Source of the DNA: Candidatus Latescibacterota bacterium
GTDB taxonomy: Bacteria; Latescibacterota; UBA2968; GCA-2709665
Direction of reading: 5' to 3'
Length of the DNA: 64,000 nt
Assembly (NCBI GenBank): GCA_965222075.1
Contig: OZ244937.1
Span: forward strand, 32,001 to 96,000
Below the pieces are notes generated by a model. The model saw only the letters and a list, made by a program, of their open reading frames with translations. It was not told the origin of the DNA and did no database searches. Position 1 is the first letter of the stretch, and each line of letters starts with the position of its first letter. The position numbers and the translations under genes were made by a program. Shown one piece after another: positions 5,649 to 61,447 of the stretch.

Positions 5649-6536
5649 ATGTCAGAGGGCATCCTTGAACGTCTCTCAAAGGGTCCCGTACTCGGCGACG
5701 GCGGTTATATCTACATTTTACGCCAGCGGAGGCTGCCGATGGAGAACTGGTCACCGCAGGATGTGCTGACGCACACCGACGCGGTACAGCAGCTCCAGCA
5801 GGAGTTCTTCGACGCCGGGGCGGAGGTGCTTATGGCGGAGACGTTCTCCGGCACGCGAAACCGGCTGGAGGAGGTGGGGCAGTCGGACCGGTTTGAGGAG
5901 ATCCACCGGAAGGCGGTGGAGATCGCCCGGAACGTGTCGCAGGGACGCGCGCTGATCGCCGGGACGGTGGGGTCGGCCCTCGGGTCGCAGTTTCGGGAAG
6001 GGGACGGGGACCGGGTGAGGCCCTGGTATGAGGAGGAGTGCGCGACCCTGAAGGATCTGGGCGTGGATTTCATGATCCTGGAGACGTTATACTTCTTAGA
6101 GGATGCGCTGGGTGCCCTGGGGGGGGCAAAGTCCACGGGCCTGGCGACGATGGTGACGATGTCGTGCAAACCTGAGCTCAAATCCCGCGAGGGGTTCGAG
6201 ATGGACATCTGTGCGAAGCGTTTGAAGGATGCGGGGGCTGACATCGTGGGACTGAACTGCATGCAGGACCCGGAGTTGATGCTGCCGCTGATGGAACAGG
6301 TCCGGAAGGCGGTGGACGGCCCGATCGCCGCGCAGCCGGTGGCCGTGCAGTGCCGGCCTTATGTCTACATGGGTGAGTCGGGGAGGCCGTGGACGGAGCT
6401 TGTCCTGCCTCCACAAGCGATGGCGGATTTTGCCCGGCAGGCGATGGAGGTCGGGATCGACTATATCGGCTCCTGCTGCGGGTCGGGCCCCGAACACGTC
6501 AGGGCGATGGCTGAGGCGATGGGCAAGGCTTCATAA
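5649..6536 (+). CDS. Homocysteine S-methyltransferase family protein (HMT #1)
   Basis: LGDGG, ILET, GLNC and GSCCGSGPEH Zn-binding motifs. Confidence 0.9.
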   Translation: MSEGILERLSKGPVLGDGGYIYILRQRRLPMENWSPQDVLTHTDAVQQLQQEFFDAGAEVLMAETFSGTRNRLEEVGQSDRFEEIHRKAVEIARNVSQGRALIAGTVGSALGSQFREGDGDRVRPWYEEECATLKDLGVDFMILETLYFLEDALGALGGAKSTGLATMVTMSCKPELKSREGFEMDICAKRLKDAGADIVGLNCMQDPELMLPLMEQVRKAVDGPIAAQPVAVQCRPYVYMGESGRPWTELVLPPQAMADFARQAMEVGIDYIGSCCGSGPEHVRAMAEAMGKAS

Positions 6537-6584
6537 ATTCAGTTGGAAGGGTAACCCCACACGAATTGTTGGAAAGGACCACTT

Positions 6585-8393
6585 ATGCCGGTTGAGACGC
6601 CGATACTCGTGCTGCTGCGCCGGTGGGCGGAGGCGCCGTTTAACCCGTATCTGGAGGAGATCCTCCAGATGGAGGGGTATTTCTGCTACCGGGTGGAGGA
6701 TGTGACGGACCGGGCGATTGACGATGGGGTGCTGGGTGACGCGCCTGTGGCGGTGCTGACGCGGATGGAACTGTCGGCGGCGGAGATGGAGGCGCTGGGG
6801 CGGTATGTGGAGCGTGGGGGACGGCTGGTTGCGTTTCGGCCGCCTGCGGCGCTGGCCGGGCTGTTTGGGTGCGTTCCTCTGGAGGGGAGGTATAGTCTGG
6901 CGTGCGAGGGGTTTGTGGTGGTGGATCGGGAGCATCCTGCGACGAGCGGATTTCCGGAGAGCGGGATGCAGTTTCGTGGGGATGCGGAGCTTTATATGCC
7001 GGAGGAGGCGAATCGGATTGCGTCATTTTGCACGGAGCCGGAGGGTTTGCTGCCGTTTGCGGGTGTGTCGTTGTGGTATCGGGGCAGGGGTGCGACGGCG
7101 TTGTTTGCGTATGATCTTGTGGAGACGGTGGTGCGGTTGCATCAGGGGAATCCGGAGCAGGCGTCCAACGGGAGCCGGCCGGATGCGGACCGGGACAATA
7201 TGTTCAAGCCGAACGATTTCTACGTTGGAGAGACCGATCCCCGGATGAGGCTGGTGCCTCAGGCGGATTTGCATCAGGATCTTTTGGTGCGTGTGTTGCG
7301 TTTTTTGACGGACGATGGGTTGCCGTTGCTTCGGGTGTGGCACTATCCTGGGGGGAAGCCTGCGGTGACGTTTTTGAACGGTGACAGCGACGGGATGGTG
7401 GATGGGGATCTGCAGCGGGTGGAGGGTTTGCTGCGTCGGTATGGGGCGTCGTTTACGGTGTATGTGATGGAGGAGCATTTTCCGCTGTTTTCGCCGGGTG
7501 CGGTTCCGGATCTGAAGGGGCGGGGGCTGGACTTTGGGCCCCATCCGTTTTGCGGGAGCCGGACCCCGACGGTGGAGCAGATGGGGGTGCATTTAGAGGC
7601 GATGTCGGCGGATTTTGAAGGGCATTTCGGGTATCGGGCGACGAGTACGCGGCACCACAATGTGATCTTTCCGGGATGGACGGAGACGTTTGAGACGCTG
7701 AGCCGGTTGGGCTACCGGATTGATACGAATCATATGGCGACCCGTTACTTCTACCCGGGGTATCTCTCCGGGAGCGGTCTGCCGTTCAAGTTTATCGATC
7801 GGAACGGCGAGATGGTGGATCTCTACGAGCAGGCGACGACGCTGGTGGATGACCCTGCGATGCATAAGTGGCTGCGGCCGACGTTTTCGGTGGAGGAGGC
7901 GCTGGAGGTGGAACAGAAGGTGTTCGTCGACTGCGTGGAGCGTTACCACACGGTTTTCCACCACTACTTCCATCCGGGCATCCAGAAGGATAAGAACTGG
8001 CACCGATACGGATGCCCGGAGGGGAACTACGCGGCAAAGGCGCTTTACAAGGCGCTGGAGTTGACGCGGGACACCGGGCTGCCGACGTTTACGGGGGAGG
8101 CGTGGGCGGGGTTCAACGACGGGCGGCGGGCGGTGCGGATAAGGGTGTTGGATGCGGGCGGCGGGCGCTGTGGGTTCCAGGTGGGATCGGCGCGTGACGT
8201 GTCAGGGCTGACGTTGATGCTGCCGGGTTGGAGCGATGGGGCGATGCTGTCGTCGGTGAGGGTGGACGGGCAGTGTGTGGAGGTGGCGTGTGTGGACTGG
8301 GAGGGGCTGGCATGGGGGGTGTGGACGATGGACGTGGAGGCGGGGCGGTCTTACAGGGTGGAGGGGATGTATAAAGTGACGATTGGTGACTGA
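6585..8393 (+). CDS. ~600-aa protein with GATase-like N-terminal and polysaccharide-deacetylase-like domains (copy 1)
   Basis: NodB-like motifs FLNGDSDG, GPHP, STRHH, RIDTN, GSGLPF, YFHP. Near-identical to two downstream copies. Confidence 0.6.
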   Translation: MPVETPILVLLRRWAEAPFNPYLEEILQMEGYFCYRVEDVTDRAIDDGVLGDAPVAVLTRMELSAAEMEALGRYVERGGRLVAFRPPAALAGLFGCVPLEGRYSLACEGFVVVDREHPATSGFPESGMQFRGDAELYMPEEANRIASFCTEPEGLLPFAGVSLWYRGRGATALFAYDLVETVVRLHQGNPEQASNGSRPDADRDNMFKPNDFYVGETDPRMRLVPQADLHQDLLVRVLRFLTDDGLPLLRVWHYPGGKPAVTFLNGDSDGMVDGDLQRVEGLLRRYGASFTVYVMEEHFPLFSPGAVPDLKGRGLDFGPHPFCGSRTPTVEQMGVHLEAMSADFEGHFGYRATSTRHHNVIFPGWTETFETLSRLGYRIDTNHMATRYFYPGYLSGSGLPFKFIDRNGEMVDLYEQATTLVDDPAMHKWLRPTFSVEEALEVEQKVFVDCVERYHTVFHHYFHPGIQKDKNWHRYGCPEGNYAAKALYKALELTRDTGLPTFTGEAWAGFNDGRRAVRIRVLDAGGGRCGFQVGSARDVSGLTLMLPGWSDGAMLSSVRVDGQCVEVACVDWEGLAWGVWTMDVEAGRSYRVEGMYKVTIGD

Positions 8394-8415
8394 TGGTATT
8401 CAAAAGGATATCCGT

Positions 8416-9306
8416 ATGAAAACCGCACTCCATTCCGTCAGTTACGCCGGGGTCTGGACCGGCCAGCACCGGCTCTCCCTTGAGGGTTTTTTGCAGAAGG
8501 CGTCGGACCTGGGCTACGATGGCGTGATGCTGATGGCCAAGCGGCCGCATCTGTCGATCCTCGACATGGACCGCGAGGCCAGGACGCGTGTCCGCGGCCT
8601 GCTAAAAGAGAAGCATCTGGAGCTGGCCTGTGTAGGCGGATACTGCGATTTCAGCATTGGCGCAGAGCGGCCCGAGATCCCGGTGCTGGAGATGCAGATC
8701 GCCTATGTGACGGAGCTGGCCCGGCTGGCGCAGGACTTGGGCGGCGACAAGGTGCGGATCTATACGGCTTACGAGCGGCCGGAATTTTCGACCGATCAGC
8801 TCTGGGACCGCTGTGTGCAGGCGGTCAAGGAGTGCGCCCGGAGGGCTGCGGATTTCAGTGTGACCATCGGGGTGCAGAACCACCACGATCTGGCCAACCA
8901 CTACGAGGGCTATCTGGCGTTTTTGAAGGAGGTGGATGAGCCGAATTGCAAGGCGATGTTCGACGCCTGGGCGCTGGAGCTGCACGGGAGCGACGTTCAG
9001 GAGGCGGTGCGGAAGCTGGCGCCCTATATCGTTCACACTACCGTGGCCGACTACGTGCGGCGGCCCCGGTTTCTGTATGACTCCCGCTACGTCAACTTCG
9101 AGCGGGGGCTGGATGTCTTCAAGGCGGTGCCGGTTGGGGAGGGCGAAGTCAATTACCGGGGTTTCCTCGGGGCGTTGAAGGAGATCGGGTATACCGGGTT
9201 TGTGGCCTACGAGATGTGTTCAATGCTCGAAGGCGGCGGCTCTGAGGCAAATCTGGACCGATTCGCTAAGCGTTTCCTGGAGTATATGCAGACCGTCGAG
9301 GACTGA
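8416..9306 (+). CDS. Sugar phosphate isomerase/epimerase (xylose-isomerase-like TIM barrel)
   Basis: LGYDGV, IGVQNHHD, PVGEGEVNY and IGYTGFVAYE motifs. Confidence 0.85.
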   Translation: MKTALHSVSYAGVWTGQHRLSLEGFLQKASDLGYDGVMLMAKRPHLSILDMDREARTRVRGLLKEKHLELACVGGYCDFSIGAERPEIPVLEMQIAYVTELARLAQDLGGDKVRIYTAYERPEFSTDQLWDRCVQAVKECARRAADFSVTIGVQNHHDLANHYEGYLAFLKEVDEPNCKAMFDAWALELHGSDVQEAVRKLAPYIVHTTVADYVRRPRFLYDSRYVNFERGLDVFKAVPVGEGEVNYRGFLGALKEIGYTGFVAYEMCSMLEGGGSEANLDRFAKRFLEYMQTVED

Positions 9307-9468: not shown

Positions 9469-10374
9469 ATGGCGAGGGATATTCTGGAGTCTTTGAAGCA
9501 GGGCTTCGTTTTGGGGGATGGGGGGTATCTGGTGGAGGCGAGGTTTCGGGGGTACAGCACGCCGAGGGTCATCGTGGAGTTTCCGAATGTCCTGCGCCTG
9601 ATCCACCAGGATTTCTTCCGGGCGGGCTCACAGGTGCTGCAGGCTCACACGTGGTGGACCACGCGCAGGCACCTGAAGGCGCGAGGGGGGGAGGCGAACT
9701 GGGCCGACCGGATGGAGGAGATCAATCGAACGGCGGTTCGATTGGCGAAGGAGGTGGCAGGGGATGAGGCGCTGGTGGCAGGGAGCGTGTGTGCCGCAGC
9801 GTATGGAAAGGACGTACTGGACCTGGACGACGGGGCGGCCTGCGATCGGGCGCAGGCGGAGTGGGACGAACAGATCGCGGTGATGGCCGACGAAGGGGTG
9901 GATTTTCTGATCTGCGAGGCGTTTCTGAGGCTGGGGGAGGCCCGGCTGGCACTGGAGTGCTGCAAGAAGACCGGACTTCCCACAGTGGTCTGCATCAGCA
10001 TCTACCCGGATGAGGCGGTGACGCGGGACGGGGCGTCTCCGGCGGAATGCGCGCGTGTGCTGGCCGAGGAGGGCGCGGATATTGTGGGATCGAATTGCTG
10101 CCGGGAGCCCGCCCAGATGTGGCCAATGGTGCTGGAGATGCGGGAGGCGGTGGATGTGCCGATCGCCTTCCAGCCGGTGGGGTGCCGGACGAGTGCGCCC
10201 GGCGATTGGCGGTCGATCCGGGAGTCGGTGATTGTCCCCGGCGTGGAGATGGCCAAGTTTGCGCTGCAGGCGAAGGCGGAGGGGATCAATTATATCGGGG
10301 CGTGCTGTGGGGCCGGTCCCGAGCTGATCCGGGCGATGGCGCAGGCGCTGGGTTGCGAACGGGATCCGATCTGA
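9469..10374 (+). CDS. HMT family protein (#2)
   Basis: LGDGGY, LICEAF, GSNCC, GACCGAGP. Confidence 0.9.
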   Translation: MARDILESLKQGFVLGDGGYLVEARFRGYSTPRVIVEFPNVLRLIHQDFFRAGSQVLQAHTWWTTRRHLKARGGEANWADRMEEINRTAVRLAKEVAGDEALVAGSVCAAAYGKDVLDLDDGAACDRAQAEWDEQIAVMADEGVDFLICEAFLRLGEARLALECCKKTGLPTVVCISIYPDEAVTRDGASPAECARVLAEEGADIVGSNCCREPAQMWPMVLEMREAVDVPIAFQPVGCRTSAPGDWRSIRESVIVPGVEMAKFALQAKAEGINYIGACCGAGPELIRAMAQALGCERDPI

Positions 10375-12194
10375 TGAAAAGTAGGATTCAGGAGGTTGAG
10401 ACGCCGATACTCGTGCTGCTGCGGCGGTGGGCAGGGGCGCCGTTTAACCCGTATCTGGAGGAGATCCTCCAGATGGAGGGGTATTTCTGCTACCGGGTGG
10501 AGGATGTGACGGACCGGGCGATTGACGATGGGGTGCTGGGTGACGCGTCTGTGGCGGTGCTGACGCGGATGGAACTGTCGGCGGCGGAGATGGAGGCGCT
10601 GGGGCGGTATGTGGATCGGGGGGGACGGCTGGTTGCGTTTCGGCCGCCTGCGGCGCTGGCCGGGCTGTTTGGGTGCAGCGAGGTGAGGGGGGTGGAAGAT
10701 GTGTATAGTCTGGCGTGCGAGGGGTTTGTGGTGGTGGATCGGGAGCATCCTGCGACGAGCGGATTTCCGGAGAGCGGGATGCAGTTTCGTGGGGATGCGG
10801 AGCTTTATATGCCGGAGGAGGCGAATCGGATTGCGTCATTTTGCACGGAGCCGGAGGGTTTGCTGCCGTTTGCGGGTGTGTCGTTGTGGTATCGGGGCAG
10901 GGGTGCGACGGCGTTGTTTGCGTATGATCTTGTGGAGACGGTGGTGCGGTTGCATCAGGGGAATCCGGAGCAGGCGTCCAACGGGAGCCGGCCGGATGCG
11001 GACCGGGACAATATGTTCAAGCCGAACGATTTCTACGTTGGAGAGACGGATCCCCGGATGAAGCTGGTGCCTCAGGCGGATTTGCATCAGGATCTTTTGG
11101 TGCGTGTGTTGCGTTTTTTGACGGACGATGGGTTGCCGTTGCTTCGGGTGTGGCACTATCCTGGGGGGAAGCCTGCGGTGACGTTTTTGAACGGTGACAG
11201 CGACGGGATGGTGGATGGGGATCTGCAGCGGGTGGAGGGTTTGCTGCGTCGGTATGGGGCGTCGTTTACGGTGTATGTGATGGAGGAGCATTTTTCGCTG
11301 TTTTCGCCGGATGCGGTTCCGGATCTGAAGGGGCGGGGGCTGGACTTTGGAATCCACCCGAATTGTGGGAGTTTAACCCCGACGGTGGAACAGATGGGGG
11401 TGCATTTAGAGGCGATGTCGGCGGATTTTGAAGGGCATTTCGGGTATCGGGCGACGAGTACGCGACACGACGCGGCAATCTGTCCGGGATGGACGGAGAC
11501 GTTTGAGACGCTGAGCCGGTTGGGCTACCGGATTGATACGAATCATATGGCGACCCGTTACTTCTACCCGGGGTATCTTTCAGGGAGCGGTCTGCCGTTC
11601 AAGTTTATCGATCGGAACGGCGAGATGGTGGATCTCTACGAGCAGGCGACGACGCTGGTGGATGATCCTGCGATGCATAAGTGGCTTCGGCCGACGTTTT
11701 CGGTGGAGGAGGCGCTGGAGGTGGAACAGAAGGTGTTCGTCGACTGCGTGGAGCGTTACCACACGGTTTTCCACCACTACTTTCATCCGGGCATCCAGAA
11801 GGATAAGAACTGGCACCGATACGGATGCCCGGAGGGGAACTACGCGGCAAAGGCGCTTTACAAGGCGCTGGAGTTGACGCGGGACACCGGGCTGCCGACG
11901 TTTACGGGGGAGGCGTGGGCGGGGTTCAACGACGGGCGGCGGGCGGTGCGGATAAAGATGTTGGATGCGGGCGGCGGGCGCTGTGGGTTCCAGGTGGGGT
12001 CGGCGCGTGACGTGTCAGGGCTGACGTTGATGCTGCCGGGTTGGAGCGATGGGGCGATGCTGTCGTCGGTGAGGGTGGACGGGCAGTGTGTGGAGGTGGC
12101 GTGTGTGGACTGGGAGGGGCTGGCATGGGGGGTGTGGACGATGGACGTGGAGGCGGGAACGGCTTGCAGGGTAGAGGGGACCTATGGGCGATGA
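10374..12194 (+). CDS. ~600-aa deacetylase-like protein (copy 2)
   Basis: ATG overlaps the upstream stop (TGATG). Near-identical to 6585..8393. Confidence 0.6.
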   Translation: MKSRIQEVETPILVLLRRWAGAPFNPYLEEILQMEGYFCYRVEDVTDRAIDDGVLGDASVAVLTRMELSAAEMEALGRYVDRGGRLVAFRPPAALAGLFGCSEVRGVEDVYSLACEGFVVVDREHPATSGFPESGMQFRGDAELYMPEEANRIASFCTEPEGLLPFAGVSLWYRGRGATALFAYDLVETVVRLHQGNPEQASNGSRPDADRDNMFKPNDFYVGETDPRMKLVPQADLHQDLLVRVLRFLTDDGLPLLRVWHYPGGKPAVTFLNGDSDGMVDGDLQRVEGLLRRYGASFTVYVMEEHFSLFSPDAVPDLKGRGLDFGIHPNCGSLTPTVEQMGVHLEAMSADFEGHFGYRATSTRHDAAICPGWTETFETLSRLGYRIDTNHMATRYFYPGYLSGSGLPFKFIDRNGEMVDLYEQATTLVDDPAMHKWLRPTFSVEEALEVEQKVFVDCVERYHTVFHHYFHPGIQKDKNWHRYGCPEGNYAAKALYKALELTRDTGLPTFTGEAWAGFNDGRRAVRIKMLDAGGGRCGFQVGSARDVSGLTLMLPGWSDGAMLSSVRVDGQCVEVACVDWEGLAWGVWTMDVEAGTACRVEGTYGR

Positions 12195-12233
12195 TTGCCT
12201 CTCAAAAACCTTTTTTCGGAGGAGGATCGGAGG

Positions 12234-13121
12234 ATGGCAATGGACATTCTGGAGTCGCTGAAGCAGGGTGTCGTCCTGGGAGATGGGGGATATCTGGAGG
12301 AAGCGAAGTATCGCGGGTACAGCACGCCGAGGGTTATTGTGGAGTTTCCGGATGTCCTGCGGCAGATCCACGTGGATTTCTTCCGGGCAGGCGCGCAGGT
12401 GCTTCAGGCCCTGACGTGGTGGACCACGCGTAGCCTTCTGAAGCGGCAGGGAAAGGCGGACTGGAGCGACCGGCTGGAGGAGATCAACCGGACGGCCGTT
12501 CGGGTGGCCAAGGAGGCCGCCGGCGATGAGGCGCTGGTGGCCGGGTGTGTGGTTCCGTCCTTCAGGTCCGATATTTCGGGGTCACGCGAGGCGATCCAGG
12601 CGGAGTGGGACGAACAGATTGCGGTGATGGCGGAGGCGGGCGTGGATATGCTGATCTGCGAGGCGTTCCTCCGGCTGGACGAGGCCCGGCTGGCCCTGGC
12701 GTGCTGCAAGAAGGCCAGGGTCCCGGCGATGGTCTGGATGAGCATCTTTCCGATGGAGACGATGACGCGGGACGAGGACGGGGTGTCTCCGGCGGAGTGT
12801 GCGCGGGTGCTGGTGGACGAGGGGGCGGACAGCGTGGGAATGAATTGTACGCGTGAGCCACGTGATATGTGGCCGATGGTGCTGGAGATGCGGGAGGCGG
12901 TGGATGTGCCGACCGCTTTCATGCCGGTCGGTCACCGGACGAGTGCTCCCGGCTGGCGGCCGGTCCGGGAAGCTATGATTGTCCCCGGCGTGGAGATGGC
13001 CGAGTATGCTTTGAAGGCGAAGGCAGAGGGGATCAACTTCATCGGTGCTTGCTGCGGCGCCGGGCCCGAGCATATCCGTGCGATGGCGCAGGCGCTGGGT
13101 TGCGAACGGGATCCGATCTGA
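12234..13121 (+). CDS. HMT family protein (#3)
   Basis: RBS ggagg, LGDGGY, GMNC, GACCGAGPEH. Confidence 0.9.
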   Translation: MAMDILESLKQGVVLGDGGYLEEAKYRGYSTPRVIVEFPDVLRQIHVDFFRAGAQVLQALTWWTTRSLLKRQGKADWSDRLEEINRTAVRVAKEAAGDEALVAGCVVPSFRSDISGSREAIQAEWDEQIAVMAEAGVDMLICEAFLRLDEARLALACCKKARVPAMVWMSIFPMETMTRDEDGVSPAECARVLVDEGADSVGMNCTREPRDMWPMVLEMREAVDVPTAFMPVGHRTSAPGWRPVREAMIVPGVEMAEYALKAKAEGINFIGACCGAGPEHIRAMAQALGCERDPI

Positions 13122-14944
13122 TGAAAAGTAGGATTCAGGAGGTTGAGACGCCGATACTCGTGCTGCTGCGGCGGTGGGCAGGGGCGCCGTTTAACCCGTA
13201 TCTGGAGGAGATCCTCCAGATGGAGGGGTATTTCTGCTACCGGGTGGAGGATGTGACGGACCGGGCGATTGACGATGGGGTGCTGGGTGATGCGCCTGTA
13301 GCGGTGCTGACGCGGATGGAACTGTCGGCGGCGGAGATGGAGGCGCTGGGGCGGTATGTGGATCGGGGGGGACGGCTGGTTGCGTTTCGGCCGCCTGCGG
13401 CGCTGGCCGGGCTGTTTGGGTGCAGCGAGGTGAAGGGGGTGCAGGGGGTGTACAGTTTGGCGTGCGAGGGGTTTGTGGTGGTGGATCGGGAGCATCCTGC
13501 GACGAGCGGATTTCCGGAGAGCGGGATGCAGTTTCGTGGGGATGCGGAGCTTTATATGCCGGAGGAGGCGAATCGGATTGCGTCATTTTGCACGGAGCCG
13601 GAGGGTTTGCTGCCGTTTGCGGGGGTAGCACTCTGGTATCGGGGCAGGGGTGCGACGGCGTTGTTTGCGTATGATCTTGTGGAGACGGTGGTGCGGTTGC
13701 ATCAGGGGAATCCGGAGCAGGCGTCCAACGGGAGCCGGCCGGACCGGGATCGGGATTTCAAGTTTACGCAGAGCGATCAATTTGTGGGGGAGACGGATCC
13801 CCGGATGAAGCTGGTGCCTCAGGCGGATTTGCATCAGGATCTTTTGGTGCGTGTGTTGCGTTTTTTGACGGACGATGGGTTGCCGTTGCTTCGGGTGTGG
13901 CACTATCCTGGGGGGAAGCCTGCGGTGACGTTTTTGAACGGTGACAGCGACGGGATGGTGGATGGGGATCTGCAGCGGGTGGAGGGTTTGCTGCGTCGGT
14001 ATGGGGCGTCGTTTACGGTGTATGTGATGGAGGAGCATTTTCCGCTGTTTTCGCCGGATGCGGTTCCGGATCTGAAGGGGCGGGGGCTGGACTTTGGGCC
14101 CCATCCGTTTTGCGGGAGCCGGACTCCCACGGTGGAGCAGATGGGGGTGCACCTGGAGGCGATGTCGGCGGATTTTGAGGGACATTTCGGGTATCGGGCG
14201 ACGAGCACACGACACCACAATGTGATCTGCCCGGGGTGGACGGAGACGTTTGAGACGCTGAGCCGGCTGGGCTACCGGATTGATACGAATCACCTGTCTT
14301 CTCGCTATTTCTACCGCGGGTATCTCTCCGGGAGCGGTCTGCCGTTCAAGTTTATCGATCGGAACGGCGAGATGGTGGATCTCTACGAGCAGGCGACTTT
14401 GCTGGTGGATGACCCTACGGTTCACAAGTATCTGCGGCCGACGGTTTCGGTGGAGGAGGCGCTGGAGCTGGAACAGAAGGTGTTCGTCGACTGCGTGGAG
14501 CGCTACCACACGGTCTTTCACCACTACTTCCATCCGGGCATCCAGAAGGATAAGAACTGGCACCGATACGGATGCCCGGAGGGGAACTACGCGGCAAAGG
14601 CGCTTTACAAGGCACTGGAGTTGACGCGGGACACCGGGCTACCGACGTTTACGGGGGAGGCGTGGGCGGCGTTCAACGACGGGCGGCGGACGGTGCGGAT
14701 AAGGGTGTTGGATGCGGGCGGTGGGCGCTGTGGGTTCGAGGTGGGGTCGGCGCGTGACGTGTCAGGGCTGACGTTGATGCTGCCGGGTTGGAGCGATGGG
14801 GCGATGCTGTCGTCGGTGAGGGTGGACGGGCAGTCTGTAGAGGTCGAATCGGCGGGGTGGGAAGGGCTGGAGTGGGGCGTGTGGACGATGGACGTGGAGG
14901 CGGGGACGGCTTGCAGAGTGGAGGGGACCTATGGGCCGCGTTGA
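13121..14944 (+). CDS. ~600-aa deacetylase-like protein (copy 3)
   Basis: TGATG overlap with HMT #3. Near-identical to copies 1 and 2. Confidence 0.6.
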   Translation: MKSRIQEVETPILVLLRRWAGAPFNPYLEEILQMEGYFCYRVEDVTDRAIDDGVLGDAPVAVLTRMELSAAEMEALGRYVDRGGRLVAFRPPAALAGLFGCSEVKGVQGVYSLACEGFVVVDREHPATSGFPESGMQFRGDAELYMPEEANRIASFCTEPEGLLPFAGVALWYRGRGATALFAYDLVETVVRLHQGNPEQASNGSRPDRDRDFKFTQSDQFVGETDPRMKLVPQADLHQDLLVRVLRFLTDDGLPLLRVWHYPGGKPAVTFLNGDSDGMVDGDLQRVEGLLRRYGASFTVYVMEEHFPLFSPDAVPDLKGRGLDFGPHPFCGSRTPTVEQMGVHLEAMSADFEGHFGYRATSTRHHNVICPGWTETFETLSRLGYRIDTNHLSSRYFYRGYLSGSGLPFKFIDRNGEMVDLYEQATLLVDDPTVHKYLRPTVSVEEALELEQKVFVDCVERYHTVFHHYFHPGIQKDKNWHRYGCPEGNYAAKALYKALELTRDTGLPTFTGEAWAAFNDGRRTVRIRVLDAGGGRCGFEVGSARDVSGLTLMLPGWSDGAMLSSVRVDGQSVEVESAGWEGLEWGVWTMDVEAGTACRVEGTYGPR

Positions 14945-16994
14945 TGAGTGTCTCCAATCCGATAAAACCCGTTCTGCTGTGCCCTCAACCGGCCAGTCCA
15001 CCGACGCTCCTGAAGTTAAACTCTCCCGCGCGGTCACCCCCCGCGCCCTTGCCATCGGCACCCTGCTGATCATCGCGATCGATTTCTGGAATATCCATAC
15101 CGAGACGGTCGCCCGCGCCTCACGGGTCAATATAACCCAGTTTCCCGTCTCTTTTGTCGCGTTTTTCGCGCTCATTGTCCTCGTTGTCAATCCCGTCCTG
15201 ACCGCTTTGCGCCGGAAGTGGGCGCTCACCTCCGGCGAGATGCTTGTTGTCCTTGGCATGGGTCTGATCGGCTCCCTCATCCCTTCCTACGGTCTGACCA
15301 GCATCCTCATCGGCATGCTGGCCACTCCCTTCTACCATGCCTCCCCGGAGAACCAGTGGGACATTTACTTTCTCGATCATATTCCGCTCTGGCTGGCTCC
15401 CCGGAATACGGGCTTCGCCCTCACCTATCTGTTCGAAGGGCTCCCCCCCGGCGCCTCCATCCCCTGGGGGGTCTGGGTGGTTCCCCTGTTCTGGTGGGGC
15501 ACCCTGATCGCAGCAGTTGTGGCGTTCAGCCTGGGCATCGCGGTGATTCTGCGCCGCCAGTGGGCTGAACACGAACGCCTCATCTACCCGCTCCTGAAGC
15601 CTGCCATCGCCCTTACCGAGCAGCCGCATCCTGGCACCTTTTGGGCCAATATTGTGCTTACCCGCCTCTTCTGGGCCGGCTTCGCCCTGGCCCTGGGAAT
15701 CAGCGCCTGGAACTACTTATCTTCTGCGCATTCAGGCATCTTTTCAATGGTTCCCCCCCCCCCTCGCATCCTGTGGCCGGGTCAGTGGTTCTACCTTGAT
15801 CGCTACATGCCTCCGATCTGGACCGTTTTCAACCTCTATACCTTCGGCTTCGGGTATTTCGTCGATCAGGACATTCTCCTCAGCTTCTGGGTCTTCAACC
15901 TGCTGCTGACCGCAGAGGTCGGCCTGTTTCGACGGGTGGGCTACCAGATCGGCGGGGATACCGGCATCCTCGGCTATATCGGCGGAAGCAGCCTCTGGGG
16001 CAACGCCGAGACGGCCTGGCAGTGCTTTGGCGCCCTGGTGTTCCTGGTGCTCGGGGGCCTCTACGTTGCCCGGCGACACTTGGCCGACGTGGTCCGCAAG
16101 GCCCTTCGACCCAGCCACCCCTTAGACGACGCGGGCGAAATGCTCTCGTGCCGAACGGCTGTCCTCTGCGTCATCGGCGGTCTGGCCTACACGCTTTTCT
16201 GGTTTCACGCCGCCGGCCTGGAGTACCAGATGCTTATCCCTTACCTGTTCGCCCTCCTGATCACCTATATCGGCGTTACGCGATTCGTGGCCGAGGGTGG
16301 GGTCCTCTACGCCTTCACTCCCATGAGCCCACAGGAGTTTATGGTGCGCATCAACGGCACCGCCTCCACTACCGCCTCCAGTATGACGTTCCTTACCTTC
16401 TCCTTCATCCTGTGTTCCAACAGGAAAGGGTTTCTCCTGCCGCCCCTGGCCCAGGTGACCCGCCTGGGTGGTCTGCTCCGGGGACCGGGGCGCCGGCTCT
16501 TCGTCGCTGTCGCTCTGGCCATCCTCGTCGCATTCATCGTTTCGATCCTCATGACCCTCTACATGAGCTACACCTACGGCGCCTCCAACTTCCGCGACTA
16601 CCCCCTCACCAGATACCCGCCCAGTCTCTTCGACCGGACACTCACCCTCGTTAAGAGCTACGCAGAGACCGACCCGGAGCACTTTATGTTCCTGGGCATC
16701 GGCGCGGGGGTCATGGCCCTTCTCACCTACCTCCGCTACCGCTTCCCCTGGTGGCCTCTCCACCCCATCGGCCTTCCCATCGCCGGCACCGAAGCCCGCA
16801 CCTCTATCGTGAGCATTATCGTGGTCTGGGGCATCAAATCGGTCCTCCTTTGGGCCGGCGGCGTGGTTCTCTACCGCCGGGCCATCCCCTTTTTTGTCGG
16901 TCTCATCGCGGGTTATTCCATCGCTGCCCTCCTCGGCCATCTGGCCGATCAGATCTGGTTCTCCGGTCAGGGGCATTACATACACGGATGGTGA
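14931..16994 (+). CDS. DUF6785/DUF6784-type polytopic membrane protein (putative transporter) #1
   Basis: Many TM segments. Motifs ASPENQW, ILRRQWAEHERLIYPL, RYRFPWWPLHPIG, GGVVLYRRAIPFFVGL. Start codon uncertain. Confidence 0.78.
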   Translation: MGRVDECLQSDKTRSAVPSTGQSTDAPEVKLSRAVTPRALAIGTLLIIAIDFWNIHTETVARASRVNITQFPVSFVAFFALIVLVVNPVLTALRRKWALTSGEMLVVLGMGLIGSLIPSYGLTSILIGMLATPFYHASPENQWDIYFLDHIPLWLAPRNTGFALTYLFEGLPPGASIPWGVWVVPLFWWGTLIAAVVAFSLGIAVILRRQWAEHERLIYPLLKPAIALTEQPHPGTFWANIVLTRLFWAGFALALGISAWNYLSSAHSGIFSMVPPPPRILWPGQWFYLDRYMPPIWTVFNLYTFGFGYFVDQDILLSFWVFNLLLTAEVGLFRRVGYQIGGDTGILGYIGGSSLWGNAETAWQCFGALVFLVLGGLYVARRHLADVVRKALRPSHPLDDAGEMLSCRTAVLCVIGGLAYTLFWFHAAGLEYQMLIPYLFALLITYIGVTRFVAEGGVLYAFTPMSPQEFMVRINGTASTTASSMTFLTFSFILCSNRKGFLLPPLAQVTRLGGLLRGPGRRLFVAVALAILVAFIVSILMTLYMSYTYGASNFRDYPLTRYPPSLFDRTLTLVKSYAETDPEHFMFLGIGAGVMALLTYLRYRFPWWPLHPIGLPIAGTEARTSIVSIIVVWGIKSVLLWAGGVVLYRRAIPFFVGLIAGYSIAALLGHLADQIWFSGQGHYIHGW

Positions 16995-17105: not shown

Positions 17106-18293
17106 ATGATCAACGGCAAGTTTGGCGCCGGCATTATCGGATGTGGCGGCGTCTCGTCCAGGCATGCCCAAGCGTATCGGATGTTTTCCGACGACTGCGA
17201 TATTGTTGCTGTTGCGGATGTCAGTGAGGAATCGGCGCGGCGGTTGATGGATCAGTTCAAGGTGGCGCAGTGGTTTCCGAACTGGCGCGACTTGCTGGCA
17301 GATGAACGCATCGATGTGGTGAGTATCTGCACGCCCCACTACCTGCACGCCCCCATGACGATCGCAGCGGCGCAAGCAGGCAAGCACATCATCTGTGAGA
17401 AGCCGATGGCAATGACCGTGGGCGAAGCCCGCGAGATGATCGCTGCATGTAAGGCGCAGAAAGTGAAACTTTCCATCGGTTCCGAACGTTTCAATCCGCG
17501 TCACCGCTTTCTCAAAGAGAGGGTGCTCCCCGAACTGGGAGAGGTGACGTTCAGTTGGCTGGTGGACTTCTACTTCCGCGATGCCGCCTACTACGCCAGC
17601 GGCTCGTGGCGCGGCACGTGGGCGAAGGAGGGCGGCGGCATCTGCGTGAATCAGGCGATTTACACCTGGGACCAGTGGCAGTGGTTCTTAGGTGGAGTGG
17701 AGTACGCCTACGGGTACTGGGCAAATGTCCTCCACCCGACAATCGAGGTCGAGGACATCGCCTACGGTCTGGTGGCGTTCAAAGACGGCTCGTACGGCAA
17801 GGTCTTGGCGACGAGTTGCTGCGACGGAGAGCCGGGCGTTGCAGGGCTGCGTATCCACGCAGAGAACGGTTGCATCTGGGCGGACGATCCGTGGTTTTAT
17901 CAGGTGGATTTCACGCTGGACGACTCCGGATCGGATGCCGCGCTTCGTCAGGCGTTCCAGCAGGCTATTGACCCGGATTACAAGGGCATGCAACACTGCC
18001 AGGTGGCCGACATGCTCGCCGCCATCCGCGAAGAACGCGAGACGCTCGTGCCCGAGGCGACGGAGGCGTTGAAGATCCTCAACGGGATTCATTGGCACGG
18101 GTGGAACCATGTGAGCAGGTTCAAGGCGTGGGCGGAGGAGTTGGGTTTGCCGCCTACCGCAGAGGACGCAAAAGCACAGGGATGGAAGGGCGGCAGGCTG
18201 GCCGCTGAACTGGTAAACATCGTGAAGGCACGCACTCGCACCCTGGAGGCGCCGTTTCTGGTCCCGCAACACGCGAAACCTGAGGACAGTTAA
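17106..18293 (+). CDS. Gfo/Idh/MocA family oxidoreductase
   Basis: GIIGCGGVS, ICTPHYLH, GKHIICEKPMA, WRGTWAKEGGG. Confidence 0.92.
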   Translation: MINGKFGAGIIGCGGVSSRHAQAYRMFSDDCDIVAVADVSEESARRLMDQFKVAQWFPNWRDLLADERIDVVSICTPHYLHAPMTIAAAQAGKHIICEKPMAMTVGEAREMIAACKAQKVKLSIGSERFNPRHRFLKERVLPELGEVTFSWLVDFYFRDAAYYASGSWRGTWAKEGGGICVNQAIYTWDQWQWFLGGVEYAYGYWANVLHPTIEVEDIAYGLVAFKDGSYGKVLATSCCDGEPGVAGLRIHAENGCIWADDPWFYQVDFTLDDSGSDAALRQAFQQAIDPDYKGMQHCQVADMLAAIREERETLVPEATEALKILNGIHWHGWNHVSRFKAWAEELGLPPTAEDAKAQGWKGGRLAAELVNIVKARTRTLEAPFLVPQHAKPEDS

Positions 18294-28231: not shown

Positions 28232-28266
28232 GCTGTTCTGGCTTTGTACAGGCTGGAGGTGATCGC

Positions 28267-46017: not shown

Positions 46018-46046
46018 TTCAGGAGGCCAGGTTGGAGGAGGATGAG

Positions 46047-54669: not shown

Positions 54670-54769
54670 TCCTGCGTGGATTGTTCTAAAGGAGTCCGGG
54701 TGGTGTTCCACAGAGGATGGCAGCCTTATCTGGCTGCCATCTCTTTATCGGTTGTGATAGGAGGTTGAG

Positions 54770-55975
54770 ATGGCCACACCAGGGCAGGTGCGGATCGGTA
54801 TTGTGGGGTTGGGACCGCGCGGCAGGCGGGCGTGGATGAAAAATCTGCTGCGAATCAAGACGTGCAGGGTGACGGCCCTCTGTGATAAGGTCGAGGCCCT
54901 TGTGCAGCAGGCTTATGAGGAGGCGGGAGATCCGGATATTACGTGCTATACCGATTATGAGAAGATGCTGAAGGAGGCGAAGATCGACGCGGTGGCGATT
55001 GTGGCAGCGCCGCACGATCAGCCGGATCTGATCTGCCGGGCGATGGAGACGGGCAAGCATGCGGCCTGCGAGGTGTCGCTGACGTACGATATGGACGATT
55101 TGTGGCGGGTGGTGGTTGCGGTGGAGCGGAGCGGGCTGAAGTTTCAGATGGCGGAACAGGTGATGTACCATGCGTTTGTGAATGCATGGCGGAAGATGGT
55201 TCTGGAGGGGAAACTCGGTCATATCATTTTTGCCGAGGGGCAGTATCTTCACGGGATGACGTCGGACCGCTTCTGGGTGGATTCCGAGACCGGGGAGCGG
55301 ATCACTCTGGAGGAAGCTAAGGGTCATCCGAGGGCGGTAAAGAGCAGGATGTGGAACTGGTATCCACATCCGATCCTTTATATGGCCACCGATCTGGGGC
55401 CGATTTTGACGGTTCTGGAGGACCGGGTGGAGCGGGTGACATGCATGGCCACGCGTCCGGAAAGTTACTATTATGAGGGGATTCCGGCGTCCGATATCGA
55501 GGTGGCGTTGATGCACACGGAGAAGGATACGATTATCCGGATGGCAAGCGGGTTTACGTATGCGACCACCCCCCGTAACCACCACTGGTGGCACCTGGAG
55601 GGGACGAAGGGGAAGGTGGAGACCGCTCGTTCCGCGGAGATCTACGGTGGGGCTTCGGGGGTGGACACTCCGAAGATGTGGCTGGAGAGTTCCGGAAAGG
55701 AAGGCATGCAGTCGGTGGAGTGGCAGTATTCGCTCGATGAGCTTCCGGCGGCGGCGGTGGGGAGCGGGCATGGGAATATGGACTATTTTGCGCTGTCTTC
55801 TTTTTTGGATGCGATTCTGAACGATTCGGAGCCGCCGCTGGACGTGTACAAGTCTGCGGACTTGACGGCCCCGGCGATTGTGGCCGTGCAGTCGGTGGAG
55901 CAGGGGAGCGCGTGCCTGGAGGTGCCGGATTTCAGGCCTTCTGAGAAGCGGAGGGCGGGGGAGCTTCCGGAATAA
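54770..55975 (+). CDS. Gfo/Idh/MocA family protein, GH109-like
   Basis: GIVGLGPRG, GKHAACEV, AEGQYLH, GSGHGNMDY, VPDF. Confidence 0.88.
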   Translation: MATPGQVRIGIVGLGPRGRRAWMKNLLRIKTCRVTALCDKVEALVQQAYEEAGDPDITCYTDYEKMLKEAKIDAVAIVAAPHDQPDLICRAMETGKHAACEVSLTYDMDDLWRVVVAVERSGLKFQMAEQVMYHAFVNAWRKMVLEGKLGHIIFAEGQYLHGMTSDRFWVDSETGERITLEEAKGHPRAVKSRMWNWYPHPILYMATDLGPILTVLEDRVERVTCMATRPESYYYEGIPASDIEVALMHTEKDTIIRMASGFTYATTPRNHHWWHLEGTKGKVETARSAEIYGGASGVDTPKMWLESSGKEGMQSVEWQYSLDELPAAAVGSGHGNMDYFALSSFLDAILNDSEPPLDVYKSADLTAPAIVAVQSVEQGSACLEVPDFRPSEKRRAGELPE

Positions 55976-56006
55976 AGGGCTGTTCCGACAAATGGGAGGT
56001 GACACG

Positions 56007-56942
56007 ATGGCATCTGGATTTCTGGAACGTCTGAACGAGGGGCCGCTGCTCGGCGACGGGGGTTACTACCTGGAGCTGGAGCGGCGGTGTCTGGGGAGTT
56101 TCGACAAGGGCGTGCCCTGGGCTGTGCTGGATCATCCGGAGGGTGTGCTGGAGCTGCACAGAGAGTTCGCGCGGGCAGGCGCAGAGGTGCTGCAGGCAAT
56201 GGCGTGGGGCGTGGGGAAGCTGGACCGGGACGAGGAGCTGCACCGCACGGCGGTTGAGCTTGCCCGGGAGGCGGCCGGGCCGAACCGGTTCGTGGCGGGC
56301 ACCCTCAGCCCGGCGGGGATCGGGCAGTACCAAAGGCGGTCGCCCATTACCGAAAAGGAGAGGCGCGAGGCGCAGGCGTTTTTCGAGCGACGGGTGGGAC
56401 AGCAGGTTGCCGCCGGGGTGGACCTGTTTATCGTGGAGACGTTTTACTCTGTAGAGGAAGCATCGCTGGGGTTGCCGTATATCAAAGATGCCGGCTTACC
56501 TGCTGTGGTGACACTGGAGTACAAGTCGGGAGAATATACGTCCGACCGGTACCTGCCGGATGAGGCTGCAAAGCGGCTGGTGGATTTTGGGGCCGATGTG
56601 GTAGGGATAAACTGCGGCCGGCCCTGGTACATGTACCGCGATATTATACACAAGATGATGGCGGCGGTGTCGGCGCCGATCTGCGCCCAGCCCTTGGCTT
56701 ATGTCCTGGAGAATGGGGCGGAGTATACACGGGAAATCGCCTCAGGCTCAAGCGTGCATTTCGAACTCCGGCACCAGCCCCGGCGAGAGATGGCCGATTA
56801 TGCGAGGGACGCGTGGGATATGGGGGTCAAGTTCATCGGGGCCTGCTGCGGAGCGTTGCCCTACCACATCCGGGCGATGGCCGAGGCGATCGGGAAGCCG
56901 ACGGAGATCCCGGACCGGGCCGGGCCTTATCAGCTTCAGTGA
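56007..56942 (+). CDS. HMT family protein (#7)
   Basis: RBS ggagg, LGDGGYYLELERR, IVETF, GINC, GACCGALPYHIRAMAEA. Confidence 0.9.
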   Translation: MASGFLERLNEGPLLGDGGYYLELERRCLGSFDKGVPWAVLDHPEGVLELHREFARAGAEVLQAMAWGVGKLDRDEELHRTAVELAREAAGPNRFVAGTLSPAGIGQYQRRSPITEKERREAQAFFERRVGQQVAAGVDLFIVETFYSVEEASLGLPYIKDAGLPAVVTLEYKSGEYTSDRYLPDEAAKRLVDFGADVVGINCGRPWYMYRDIIHKMMAAVSAPICAQPLAYVLENGAEYTREIASGSSVHFELRHQPRREMADYARDAWDMGVKFIGACCGALPYHIRAMAEAIGKPTEIPDRAGPYQLQ

Positions 56943-57436: not shown

Positions 57437-58306
57437 ATGGCGAAGGATTTGATGGAGATGCTGGGGGAGGGCATTGTGCTGGGGGACGGCGGAATGTACC
57501 TGGAGGCACTCTGGCGCGGGTACGGCGTGCCCGAGATCATCGGGTCGCACCCGGAGGCATTGCGGCAGATCCACCAGGACTTTTACAATGCCGGTTCGCA
57601 GGTGCTTCAGGCGCTGACCTGGTTTACGTCGGGTGCGCAGCTGGAGGCGAAGTACGGCTGGGGCGATCGGGTGGAAGAGATCAATCGAACGGGGATTCGG
57701 GCGGCGAAGGAGGCGTCCAACGGGGAGGCGCCGGTGGGGGGGTGTCTGGTGTCTACGAGGACGGGGTCGCGGCTGGGGGATCCGGTTTTCGATCCGGACG
57801 ATCCGTCGTCGCACGCCCGGGCGCAGGCAGAGTGGGAGGATCAGATTGCGATCCTGGTGGATGCGGGCGCGGATTTTCTGATTCCCGAGACGTTTGCCCG
57901 GTTGGACGAGGTGCGGTTGTGTCTGGAGAGCTGTAAGAAGACCGACGTGCCGACGATGGTGCTGCTGGGAATGGGGAGCCGGAACGAGACTCAGGACGGA
58001 GTTAAGGCAGCGGAGTGCGCACGGATCCTGGCCGGAGACGGGGCGGATATCGTGGGCACGGTCTGCATCGGGGGTCCCGAGCAGATGCTGCCGACCGCGC
58101 TGGAGATGCGGGAGGCGGTGGATGTGCCGATCGCCTGCCAGCCGAAGGGGTTCAAGCAGAATCAGAAATACAATGTCGTTCCGCCGGAAGAGATGGGGGA
58201 GTTTGCGGTGAAGGCGAAGGCGGAAGGGATTAATTACATCGGCTGCTGCTGCGGCACGGGTCCTTTGCACATTCGGGCGATGGCGGAGGCGCTGGGGCTC
58301 AAGTAG
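57437..58306 (+). CDS. HMT family protein (#8)
   Basis: Largely identical to #6, including the 3' flank. GTVC and GCCCGTGP. Confidence 0.9.
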   Translation: MAKDLMEMLGEGIVLGDGGMYLEALWRGYGVPEIIGSHPEALRQIHQDFYNAGSQVLQALTWFTSGAQLEAKYGWGDRVEEINRTGIRAAKEASNGEAPVGGCLVSTRTGSRLGDPVFDPDDPSSHARAQAEWEDQIAILVDAGADFLIPETFARLDEVRLCLESCKKTDVPTMVLLGMGSRNETQDGVKAAECARILAGDGADIVGTVCIGGPEQMLPTALEMREAVDVPIACQPKGFKQNQKYNVVPPEEMGEFAVKAKAEGINYIGCCCGTGPLHIRAMAEALGLK

Positions 58307-60511: not shown

Positions 60512-60586
60512 GGGAATGGGGGTCTGTATGGAGGCGGAGTACAATTGCGACTACCGGCGGGAAGGGATTGAAAGGAGGACTTGAGG

Positions 60587-61447
60587 ATGGCGAAGAATCT
60601 TCTGGAGATGCTGAAAGAGGACGTGGTTTTGAGTGACGGGGGGATGATCCTGGAGGCGAGGTGGCGCGGGTATGATACGCCCAGGGCGATTGTGGAACAT
60701 CCGGACGCGATCCGGCAGATTCACAGAGATTTCTACAATGCAGGCTCTCAGGTGCTTGAGGCGGTGACGTGGTTTTGCTCCAGGTCTCAGCTGGAGCGGA
60801 ATTTCGGGTGGGGAGACCGGCTGGACGAGGTGAACCGGATGGGTGTGCAATTGGCGGTGGAAGCGTCGGACGGGGAGGCGCCGGTGGGCGGGTGCCTGGT
60901 GTCGACCAGGACCGGGTCGTGGGAGGGCGATCCGATTTTCGATCCGGACGATGCGTCGTCGCACGCCCGGGCGCAGGCGGAGTGGGAGGAGCAGATTGCG
61001 ATCCTGGTGGATGCGGGCGCGGATTTTCTGATTCCCGAGACCTTCAGTCGACTGGATGAGGTGCGGGTGTGTCTGGAGAGTTGCAAGAAGGCGGACATTC
61101 CGACAATGGTGTTGATGGGCCTTGGGAACAGGACGCCGGACGGCGCATCTCCGGCGGAGTGCGCTCGCATTCTGGTTGACGAGGGCGCGGATGTTGTGGG
61201 CACGGTTTGCAGCGGCCGCCCAAGCAGCATGTGGCCTGTGGTACTGGAGATGCGGGAGGCGGTGGATGTGCCGATCGGCTATCAGCCGAGCGGTTACGCC
61301 GGCCCCAACGCGATGGTTCCCGTGGAGGAGATGGCCGAGTATGCCCTGAAGGCGAAGGCGGAGGGTATCAACTTCGTCGGCGCTTGCTGCTATGCCGGTC
61401 CCAAGCACATTCGGGCCATGGCCAAGGCTCTGGGCCGCAAGGGGTGA
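60587..61447 (+). CDS. HMT family protein (#9)
   Basis: LSDGGM, LIPETF, GTVC, GACCYAGP. Central block nearly identical to #6. Confidence 0.9.
   Translation: MAKNLLEMLKEDVVLSDGGMILEARWRGYDTPRAIVEHPDAIRQIHRDFYNAGSQVLEAVTWFCSRSQLERNFGWGDRLDEVNRMGVQLAVEASDGEAPVGGCLVSTRTGSWEGDPIFDPDDASSHARAQAEWEEQIAILVDAGADFLIPETFSRLDEVRVCLESCKKADIPTMVLMGLGNRTPDGASPAECARILVDEGADVVGTVCSGRPSSMWPVVLEMREAVDVPIGYQPSGYAGPNAMVPVEEMAEYALKAKAEGINFVGACCYAGPKHIRAMAKALGRKG

Follow-up and report, generated by a model that had tools for sequence, protein, structure and literature searches.

A battery of homocysteine S-methyltransferase-like genes embedded in glycan and amino-sugar uptake operons of Latescibacterota

Why would a bacterium keep nine genes of the homocysteine S-methyltransferase family (HMTs) in the midst of genes for nutrient uptake? 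The question is raised by a stretch of 64,000 nucleotides from a Candidatus Latescibacterota bacterium (assembly GCA_965222075.1, contig OZ244937.1). This stretch, hereafter the window, covers bases 32001-96000 of a single-contig genome of 5.36 Mb (G000), has a G+C content of 59-63% and carries nearly all of its genes on the + strand. A first-pass annotation had read the locus as a methyl-harvesting system. In this work, the HMTs were found to be an old, conserved and lineage-restricted set in certain Latescibacterota, added to a subset of their glycan and amino-sugar utilisation operons. Their position in import and amino-sugar operons suggests an undescribed step of nutrient breakdown. We tentatively favour the reading, to which we give a probability of about 0.4, that the HMTs transfer an activated methyl group from a fragment imported by these modules, or from its breakdown product, onto homocysteine, with a donor specific to each paralog.

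In a Pfam scan of 40 open reading frames (ORFs) of the window, PF02574 was matched at exactly nine sites, those already given by the first-pass annotation, with E-values of 2.1e-37 to 2.4e-45, scores of 130-156 bits (gathering cut-off 22) and nearly the whole profile covered. The same scan gave no B12, pterin or MTHFR domain in the nine proteins, again as had been claimed. The 22 full-length copies of the genome were aligned, and HMT6 was also aligned pairwise to rat betaine-homocysteine S-methyltransferase (BHMT, 1umy). All nine window copies retain the DGG motif, the glutamate aligned with Glu159 of BHMT, the first zinc cysteine (GxNC or GTVC) and the CC pair; the full set of three zinc cysteines (GxNC and GGCC motifs), together with DGG and the glutamate, is retained in 9/9 window copies and in 20 of the 22 full-length genome copies. 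The roles of these residues, and of the Trp44 loop mentioned below, are presumably those described for BHMT and MetH. The barrel loops vary among the paralogs, and the loops quoted in the first-pass annotation are present in the alignment. Judged by their motifs, the nine gene products belong to a BHMT-like branch of the family and look like intact zinc enzymes of the cytoplasm, which would be catalytically competent.

The closest solved structures are those of mammalian BHMT (1umy, 1lt7, 4m3p), matched over the whole barrel with E-values of 4.9e-27 to 2e-25, followed by the MetH N-terminal domains (~1e-15) and E. coli MmuM/YagD (5dml, 1.5e-9). Equivalents of Cys217, Cys299-Cys300 and the aromatic pair Phe76-Tyr77 of BHMT also align, the pair being W-W or W-F in the HMTs. 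On the other hand, the HMTs stop right after the barrel at 288-313 amino acids (aa), whereas BHMT has 406-407 aa with a C-terminal extension, and their context is that of glycan and amino-sugar operons, not of betaine catabolism. Furthermore, the Trp44 loop of the betaine pocket is deleted in HMT6 and in all copies of branches A and A2, although in three copies outside the window (H2107573, H1207917 and H5356873) DGG is still followed by a loop similar to that of BHMT, with Phe or Met at the Trp44 position. On the NCBIfam BHMT model (NF005718, cut-off 338 bits), HMT1 scored only 92.8, HMT6 95.7 and HMT5 54.7 bits. MmuM resembles the HMTs as a stand-alone single barrel, and the HMT5 domain scores best on its model (PRK09485, NF007020; 107.9 bits). 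However, all copies scanned remain below the MmuM cut-off of 215 bits (the other two at 75.8 and 67.9), and the match to 5dml is weak. With the homocysteine-binding domain of MetH and with the split corrinoid methionine synthases, the HMTs share the fold and the zinc site, but they are without B12, pterin and activation domains, and there is no corrinoid gene in the examined HMT loci. A database search gave at least 2797 proteins at E <=1e-30 among 8000 scored candidates. The homologues bear generic names only ('betaine-homocysteine S-methyltransferase', 'homocysteine S-methyltransferase family protein', 'hypothetical protein').

One of the nine, HMT5, has a C-terminal class-I S-adenosylmethionine (SAM) methyltransferase domain at aa ~360-540, about which the first-pass annotation was silent. 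This fusion is retained in G010, G103 and L016 and on the metagenome contigs L060 and L061, at 69-74% identity. The S-methylmethionine cycle of plants consists of an HMT plus methionine S-methyltransferase, and the pairing of an HMT with a SAM methyltransferase recalls it; no fusion of this kind was described in the literature searched. Two other groups of apparent fusions were rejected. Elsewhere in the genome, two HMT ORFs of unusual length (606 and 639 aa) are over-extended and overlap the upstream gene. In three cases in which an HMT seemed to be joined to a DAO, NagB-like or SIS domain, a truncated HMT domain is followed by Arg/Pro-rich stretches typical of the wrong frame, so these are read as adjacent genes merged by frameshifts and attest adjacency only; related HMTs (42-43% identical) do adjoin DAO, NagB-like and SIS genes elsewhere.

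The battery extends beyond the window. The genome contains 26 PF02574 matches; 22 are full-length genes, which are spread over 11 places, two come from a single gene that is split, and two are short fragments. In the split gene (G000 5069808-5071071; L009:9808-11113), which is probably frameshifted, one ORF matches profile positions 2-169 and the other, overlapping it, positions 163-283. Because the copies are 19-86% identical in pairs, they are neither assembly artefacts nor recent duplicates; the single contig and the orthologs in other genomes also rule this out. Nine HMTs in one window is far above chance; most other genomes in a sample of 151 from the phylum hold 0-5 matches (best 15 candidates per genome scored). 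Within family f1, there are 10-32 matches per genome in genera g1, g2 and g4, 6-8 in g5 and 1-3 in g3, while genus g6 of the sister family f2 has 2-3 and G103, of family f4, has 18. When 52 HMT sequences of G000, G010 and G103 were placed in a maximum-likelihood tree, the genomes were seen to interleave (25 label changes, compared with a shuffled mean of 23.9), at least 12 orthogroups are common to the three genomes, and a core clade of 41 sequences has an SH-aLRT of 99; the tree is a quick search without bootstraps, with several long branches flagged. The dN/dS values against the orthologs on OZ252228.1 are 0.28 for HMT1, 0.21 for HMT2 and 0.45 for HMT3, and 0.13-0.36 for four neighbouring genes. 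The shared orthogroups and these ratios mean that the battery is old and kept by purifying selection.

The gene order is conserved in relatives as well. Contig OZ252228.1 keeps the series TonB receptor-U800-PorV-HMT1-U600-XylIso-HMT2-U600-HMT3-U600-DUF6785 at 89-95% protein identity. A compact nine-gene operon with the order DUF6785-HMT(B)-Gfo2-HMT(A)-DegT-DegT-HMT(A)-U600-HMT/SAM-methyltransferase fusion was found in G103 (contig C57), L016, L060 and L061, at 74-85% identity. The pair of DegT genes beside an HMT is retained in the same four, the Gfo2-HMT7 pair in G010, G103 and L060-L062, and G010 also retains Gfo3-HMT-(Cys-less HMT)-DUF6785. An HMT lies within 5 kb of 4/5 close U600 paralogs and of 2/3 close DegT1 paralogs, and 3/5 Gfo3-type paralogs (>=65% identity) are within 3.3 kb of one. 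A DUF6785 gene is found within 10 kb of 14 of the 23 HMT loci of G000; collapsed to clusters, 7 of 11 lie near DUF6785, against 1.5 expected at random (p ~3e-4). The HMT loci outside the window include sulfatases, heparinase II/III-like, PcRGLX/GH127-like and CE4 deacetylase genes and flavin amine oxidases, and further PhyH, ceramidase-like, creatininase, esterase and DMFase-like proteins. A metagenome scan with a narrower HMT alignment gave four loci, of which three were informative, all from lineages already seen. At one further HMT/DUF6785 locus (L011:3566-5131), a 521-aa protein combines an aminoglycoside 3-N-acetyltransferase domain with a xylose-isomerase-like TIM barrel.

The neighbours listed in the first-pass annotation were recovered, namely three DUF6785+DUF6784 proteins, two TonB receptors (one truncated by the window), a gamma-glutamyltranspeptidase (GGT), a peptidase S15, an AAT-type Ntn hydrolase, a cyclase, four Gfo/Idh/MocA, two DegT and one PhyH. 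Three U600 copies, 90-95% identical to each other, lie directly 3' of HMT1, HMT2 and HMT3. No Pfam or NCBIfam family was matched by U600, and its sequence profile gave weak CE4 matches (PdaC, PdaA). A structure model built from 13 homologues (pLDDT 82) was searched with Foldseek; the best matches were Agd3 (CE18; 6nwz, E 1.1e-14), then the N-deacetylase part of human NDST1, PelA and many CE4 enzymes, with E-values for the three named proteins from 1.1e-14 to 3e-10. In the model, the N-terminal domain resembles ThuA/GATase1-like folds and is followed by a CE4/Agd3-like barrel. Unlike Agd3, NDST1 and PelA, to which it is only 10-13% identical, U600 has this ThuA/GATase1-like domain, belongs to no Pfam family and has no detected signal peptide. 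U600 is read, from the model, as a new family of putative cytoplasmic Agd3/NDST-like N-deacetylases. A scan of the genome collection with U600 gave seven loci, all labelled Latescibacterota or 'Gemmatimonas sp.'. The three copies are closer to each other than to their positional orthologs on OZ252228.1 (90-92%), while the intervening HMTs are 38-75% identical, which suggests gene conversion among the U600 copies.

For DUF6785, of which G000 has 47 matches, a profile of 12 paralogs found no PDB chain at E <=1, and Pfam gives DUF6785/DUF6784 only. A model from the same number of paralogs (pLDDT 73) has significant PDB matches only to barley YS1 (7wsr and 7wst, E 4.5e-7 and 6.5e-7, TM 0.54-0.67), and DUF6785 is thus predicted to be an importer with the OPT/Yellow-Stripe fold. 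The family occurs in 40/40 relatives searched, with 17 to at least 28 matches each, and was not matched in 14 well-known control genomes. At the outer membrane, a TonB-dependent receptor, the U800 protein and a PorV/PorQ-like barrel recur as three-gene units, about 21 in G000, two of which are in the window (3-5524 and 30636-37209). Together with the OPT-fold importers and the hydrolases, these triads support the description of the locus as similar to a polysaccharide utilisation locus (PUL), which was already part of the first-pass annotation. The Bacteroidota SusC/SusD PULs likewise join a receptor, a surface partner, an inner-membrane importer and degradative enzymes. They differ in that no SusD family match was obtained in the window, its place being taken by an unnamed 800-aa protein and a PorV/PorQ-like barrel, and in that the inner-membrane step is predicted to be an OPT-fold DUF6785 permease; the window receptor reaches 66 bits on the SusC/RagA model TIGR04056, for which the cut-off is 368.

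According to the reading that we favour, the TonB-dependent receptor, its 800-aa surface partner and the PorV-like barrel would take up a glycoconjugate fragment, and the OPT-fold DUF6785 permease would carry it into the cytoplasm. There, the U600 N-deacetylase, the DegT aminotransferases and the Gfo/Idh/MocA dehydrogenases would dismantle its acetamido and amino groups. The substrate or its breakdown product would then give up an activated methyl group to a homocysteine thiolate activated by the Zn(Cys)3 site of the HMTs, and methionine would be formed. Quaternary ammonium groups, sulfonium groups and carboxyl methyl esters would be chemically plausible as donors, and the divergent loops of each paralog would fit a different one. 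Through the SAM cycle, the conserved fusion of an HMT with a SAM methyltransferase may give back the methyl load or eliminate it. We infer homocysteine as the acceptor, methyl as the group moved and an imported compound as the donor, and the substrates named are proposed on the same footing. The conserved N-deacetylase, DegT and Gfo/Idh/MocA partners argue for amino-sugar catabolism rather than for a methyl-centred locus. Of the methyl-harvesting system proposed earlier, the architecture and its conservation are therefore real, but the harvesting itself is no more than plausible, as the setting suggests amino-sugar catabolism and the genes point to no particular methyl donor. A more far-reaching hypothesis, which we consider doubtful, is that certain Latescibacterota demethylate during glycan and amino-sugar catabolism without oxygen or cobalamin, by a battery of donor-specific zinc-thiolate enzymes that pass activated methyl groups straight from imported fragments to homocysteine. 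Carboxyl methyl esters, or quaternary N-methyls on sugars or head groups, are examples of what might serve as donors; removal of the methyl group would unblock deacetylation and transamination and capture it as methionine, and the fusion and the catalytically dead partners would belong to this machinery as well.

Several observations weigh against methyl transfer from imported fragments. Among the genes of the examined HMT loci, none indicates a known methylated or onium compound as the substrate. For a zinc thiolate, the O-methyl ethers of sugars make poor donors, as do secondary or tertiary (non-quaternary) N-methyls, and four HMT-domain genes in one nine-gene operon fit poorly with one methyl group per substrate. 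The NCBIfam equivalog cut-offs were reached by none of the three copies scanned (HMT1, HMT5 and HMT6), and the roles given to the HMT residues come from the BHMT alignment and the structural literature. Two copies, H150999 and H3085609, have none of the three zinc cysteines, the latter also lacking the glutamate; the H150999 type recurs in G010 and G103, and an intact copy is its tandem neighbour in every case. Since this clade is conserved, some members of the family do not catalyse methyl transfer. Nor is the link to DUF6785 obligatory. The other nine of the 23 HMT loci are 12-574 kb from any DUF6785 gene, and DUF6785 is present in 19 to at least 28 copies in sister-family genomes that hold only 1-10 HMT matches (24 to at least 28 copies in genus g6, with 2-3 HMTs), as well as in 23 copies in genus g3, with 1-3 HMTs. 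The receptor triads are equally abundant in relatives with few HMTs. DUF6785 being so abundant in HMT-poor relatives, the HMTs form an accessory layer on top of a general architecture for uptake, of which they are not an integral part.

Alternatively, the HMT genes may merely sit in uptake islands and serve methionine salvage from free small onium donors such as glycine betaine, S-methylmethionine, dimethylsulfoniopropionate (DMSP) or choline-derived betaines, with no action on glycan fragments. BHMT as the closest solved relative, the automatic JGI name 'betaine-homocysteine S-methyltransferase' given to homologues, and the BHMT-like loop kept after DGG in the three copies outside the window would all suit such a role. 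Moreover, neither the MetH activation domain PF02965 nor an HMT match of MetH length (1200 aa) was found anywhere in G000, so additional routes to methionine could be useful. However, this genome also has three short MetE-like genes for the synthesis of methionine, as well as an S-adenosylhomocysteine hydrolase gene, and 22 copies far exceed the needs of salvage. The nine-gene operon includes four HMTs without a betaine or choline gene. Finally, although the loci have been rearranged, particular HMT orthogroups have remained neighbours of particular subfamilies of Gfo, DegT and U600 in three or four lineages. We regard salvage as unlikely.

The same amino-sugar partners, which are unconnected to methyl groups, are compatible with a different chemistry of the barrel. 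With an electrophile derived from a sugar, the zinc-thiolate barrel could alkylate homocysteine or a thiol of the substrate, or it could make or break a thioether; several paralogs could instead be non-catalytic subunits of hetero-oligomers. Zinc-thiolate alkyltransferases that act on non-methyl electrophiles do exist, epoxyalkane:CoM transferase being one. The presence of several HMT types in one operon would fit such a scheme, as would the retention of the Cys-less clade in tandem with intact copies in three genomes. In G000, these tandem pairs are at 150999-152880 (L002:9018-11880) and 3085609-3087511 (L007:9609-11511), and the Cys-less member may, from its sequence, be a non-catalytic partner subunit. 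On the other hand, every characterised PF02574 member known to us transfers methyl to homocysteine or selenohomocysteine, and the DGG motif and the glutamate that holds homocysteine in BHMT are retained in all nine window copies. Therefore, this alternative also appears unlikely to us.

It is very unlikely that the HMTs belong to a split cobalamin system as the half that methylates homocysteine, with methyl received from a corrinoid protein as in the N-terminal domain of MetH. The loop by which BHMT closes over betaine is missing from branch A, which may leave the barrel face open, and G000 encodes a corrinoid protein, its RACo activator and a URO-D-type methyltransferase. They belong to the sole corrinoid cluster found, near 4.08 Mb (L059, G000 4074001-4092000), together with a GntR regulator, PhyH, an MTHFR-like gene with DUF5981, a pterin-binding methyltransferase and GGT. 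Having its own pterin-binding methyltransferase and MTHFR-like gene and lying >500 kb from any HMT, this self-contained cluster argues against the HMTs as split-MetH halves. Pterin-binding, B12-binding and activation domains of the MetH type are absent from the window, and no B12-binding gene occurs in the examined HMT loci. In its own right, L059 represents a second, separate methyl-handling system of G000.

Lastly, biosynthetic modules in which DegT, Gfo/Idh/MocA, deacetylase, PhyH and methyltransferase build an aminoglycoside-like or otherwise modified sugar for export by DUF6785 are likewise very unlikely, for although these enzyme families do occur in amino-sugar and aminoglycoside biosynthesis and the fusion bears a methyltransferase domain of biosynthetic type, the window has no glycosyltransferase, nucleotidyl-transferase or cyclitol synthase, the modules are preceded by TonB-dependent receptors and have hydrolases, sulfatases and polysaccharide-lyase-like genes as neighbours, and the sole solved structural match of DUF6785 is an importer.

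The genes of the window are listed in Table 1. At the sequence level, U600, U800, the 582-aa protein and DUF6785 could not be identified, as profile searches of Pfam, NCBIfam and the PDB yielded weak matches at best; it was the predicted structures, of U600 and DUF6785, that proved informative. The 1525-aa double helicase, which stands amid catabolic genes, may be defence-related, and the 1.7 kb beside it (53044-54770) are without an annotated gene.

Table 1. Genes of the 64-kb window, with positions counted from its first base
Feature	Position	Strand	Basis or remark
TonB-dependent receptor, C-terminal part, cut by window edge	3..1925	+	no Pfam match; 30% identical to 30636-33833 receptor; one of 21 paralogs
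U800, ~850-aa exported protein, no named family	1987..4545	+	no Pfam/NCBIfam match; N-terminal hydrophobic segment; 21 paralogs, each beside receptor
PorV/PorQ-family outer-membrane barrel	4520..5524	+	NF033709 143 bits, cut-off 90
HMT1, BHMT-like branch C	5595..6536, ATG 5649	+	PF02574 E 2.4e-45; motifs intact; G004 ortholog 93% identical
U600 copy 1, N-deacetylase-like	6585..8393	+	no Pfam match; predicted structure
Xylose-isomerase-like TIM barrel	8383..9306	+	PF01261 E 2.5e-32
HMT2, branch A	9469..10374	+	PF02574 E 4.4e-41; motifs intact
U600 copy 2	10395..12194, start approximate (listed ORF overlaps HMT2)	+	95% identical to copy 1
HMT3, branch A	12195..13121, ATG 12234	+	PF02574 E 3.4e-44
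U600 copy 3	13139..14944, start approximate	+	92% identical to copy 1
DUF6785/DUF6784 predicted importer 1	14931..16994	+	PF20581 E 2.2e-99; ~12 hydrophobic segments
Gfo/Idh/MocA oxidoreductase	17106..18293	+	PF01408 E 4.1e-32
879-aa TPR protein	18331..20970	+	Pfam TPR families; syntenic in L020
DegT/DnrJ/EryC1 aminotransferases, tandem pair	20995-22260, 22335-23657	+	PF01041 E 4.2e-76, 1.8e-74
HMT4, branch A	23674..24600	+	PF02574 E 7.6e-41
Peptidase S15	24779-26482	+	PF02129/PF08530
GGT	26576-28231	+	PF01019 E 1.8e-137
DUF6785/DUF6784 predicted importer 2	28204..30288	+	PF20581 E 1.7e-105
TonB-dependent receptor, complete	30636-33833	+	Plug + CarboxypepD_reg domains
U800, second triad	33892-36228	+	no family; nearest Atlas clusters unnamed, from FCB-group phyla
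PorV/PorQ-like barrel, second triad	36259-37209	+	NF033709 161 bits
PhyH dioxygenase	37264-38295	+	PF05721
Cyclase-family hydrolase	38324-39022	+	PF04199
Kelch-like 376-aa protein	39044-40174	+	weak Kelch match
HMT5 fused to class-I SAM methyltransferase	40226..41986	+	PF02574 E 5.4e-41 aa 22-311; PrmA/MTS/Methyltransf aa 360-540
582-aa protein, no family	42037..43785	+	no Pfam match even at E 5; one genome paralog
DUF6785/DUF6784 predicted importer 3	43860..45899	+	PF20581 E 1.1e-93
AAT-type Ntn amide hydrolase	46032..47129	+	PF03417 E 2.1e-19
HMT6, branch A2	47179..48081	+	PF02574 E 2.6e-43; rat BHMT 1umy E 4.9e-27
1525-aa double helicase	48467-53044		DEAD/Helicase_C part: PADLOC DpdF E 2e-112, PsyrT E 9e-92; UvrD part resembles GajB
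Gfo/Idh/MocA 'Gfo2', always adjoins branch-B HMT	54770..55975	+	PF01408 E 5.2e-12
HMT7, branch B	55878..56942, ATG 56007	+	PF02574 E 2.1e-37
HMT8, branch A2	57437..58306	+	PF02574 E 8.4e-41; 86% identical to HMT6
Gfo/Idh/MocA 'Gfo3'	58412-59596	+	PF01408 E 1.2e-11
Coiled-coil-like 298-aa protein	59615-60511	+	next to Gfo3
HMT9, branch A2	60581..61447, ATG 60587	+	PF02574 E 9e-41

The first-pass annotation knew of no described equivalent, and the literature searched gave none. No papers were found on DUF6785 or on homocysteine S-methyltransferase genes in polysaccharide utilisation loci, and nothing related on HMT paralogs with TonB-dependent systems; nor were any found on bacterial PF02574 expansions, judged from the search listings, or on Latescibacteria and homocysteine metabolism, judged by title and abstract. 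We regard the battery as a new form of a familiar enzyme family, placed in an operon context that is new as well, with a biochemistry predicted from the genes.

To our knowledge, stand-alone homocysteine methyltransferases act on a few small donors only, namely betaine, S-methylmethionine and SAM. Latescibacterota are an uncultured phylum known for polymer degradation, and here at least 12 conserved HMT orthogroups are wired into their nutrient-uptake operons. Even if the chemistry turned out to be another one, the parts are defined. They include the nine-gene operon, the fusion of an HMT with a SAM methyltransferase, a predicted family of cytoplasmic N-deacetylases, a predicted family of OPT-fold importers and the conserved zinc-less HMTs as putative partners. 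If each HMT does demethylate a different imported compound, it would mean a new catabolic logic that joins the breakdown of glycans and amino sugars to the methionine/SAM cycle, and the battery would be a rich source of new methyltransferase specificities.

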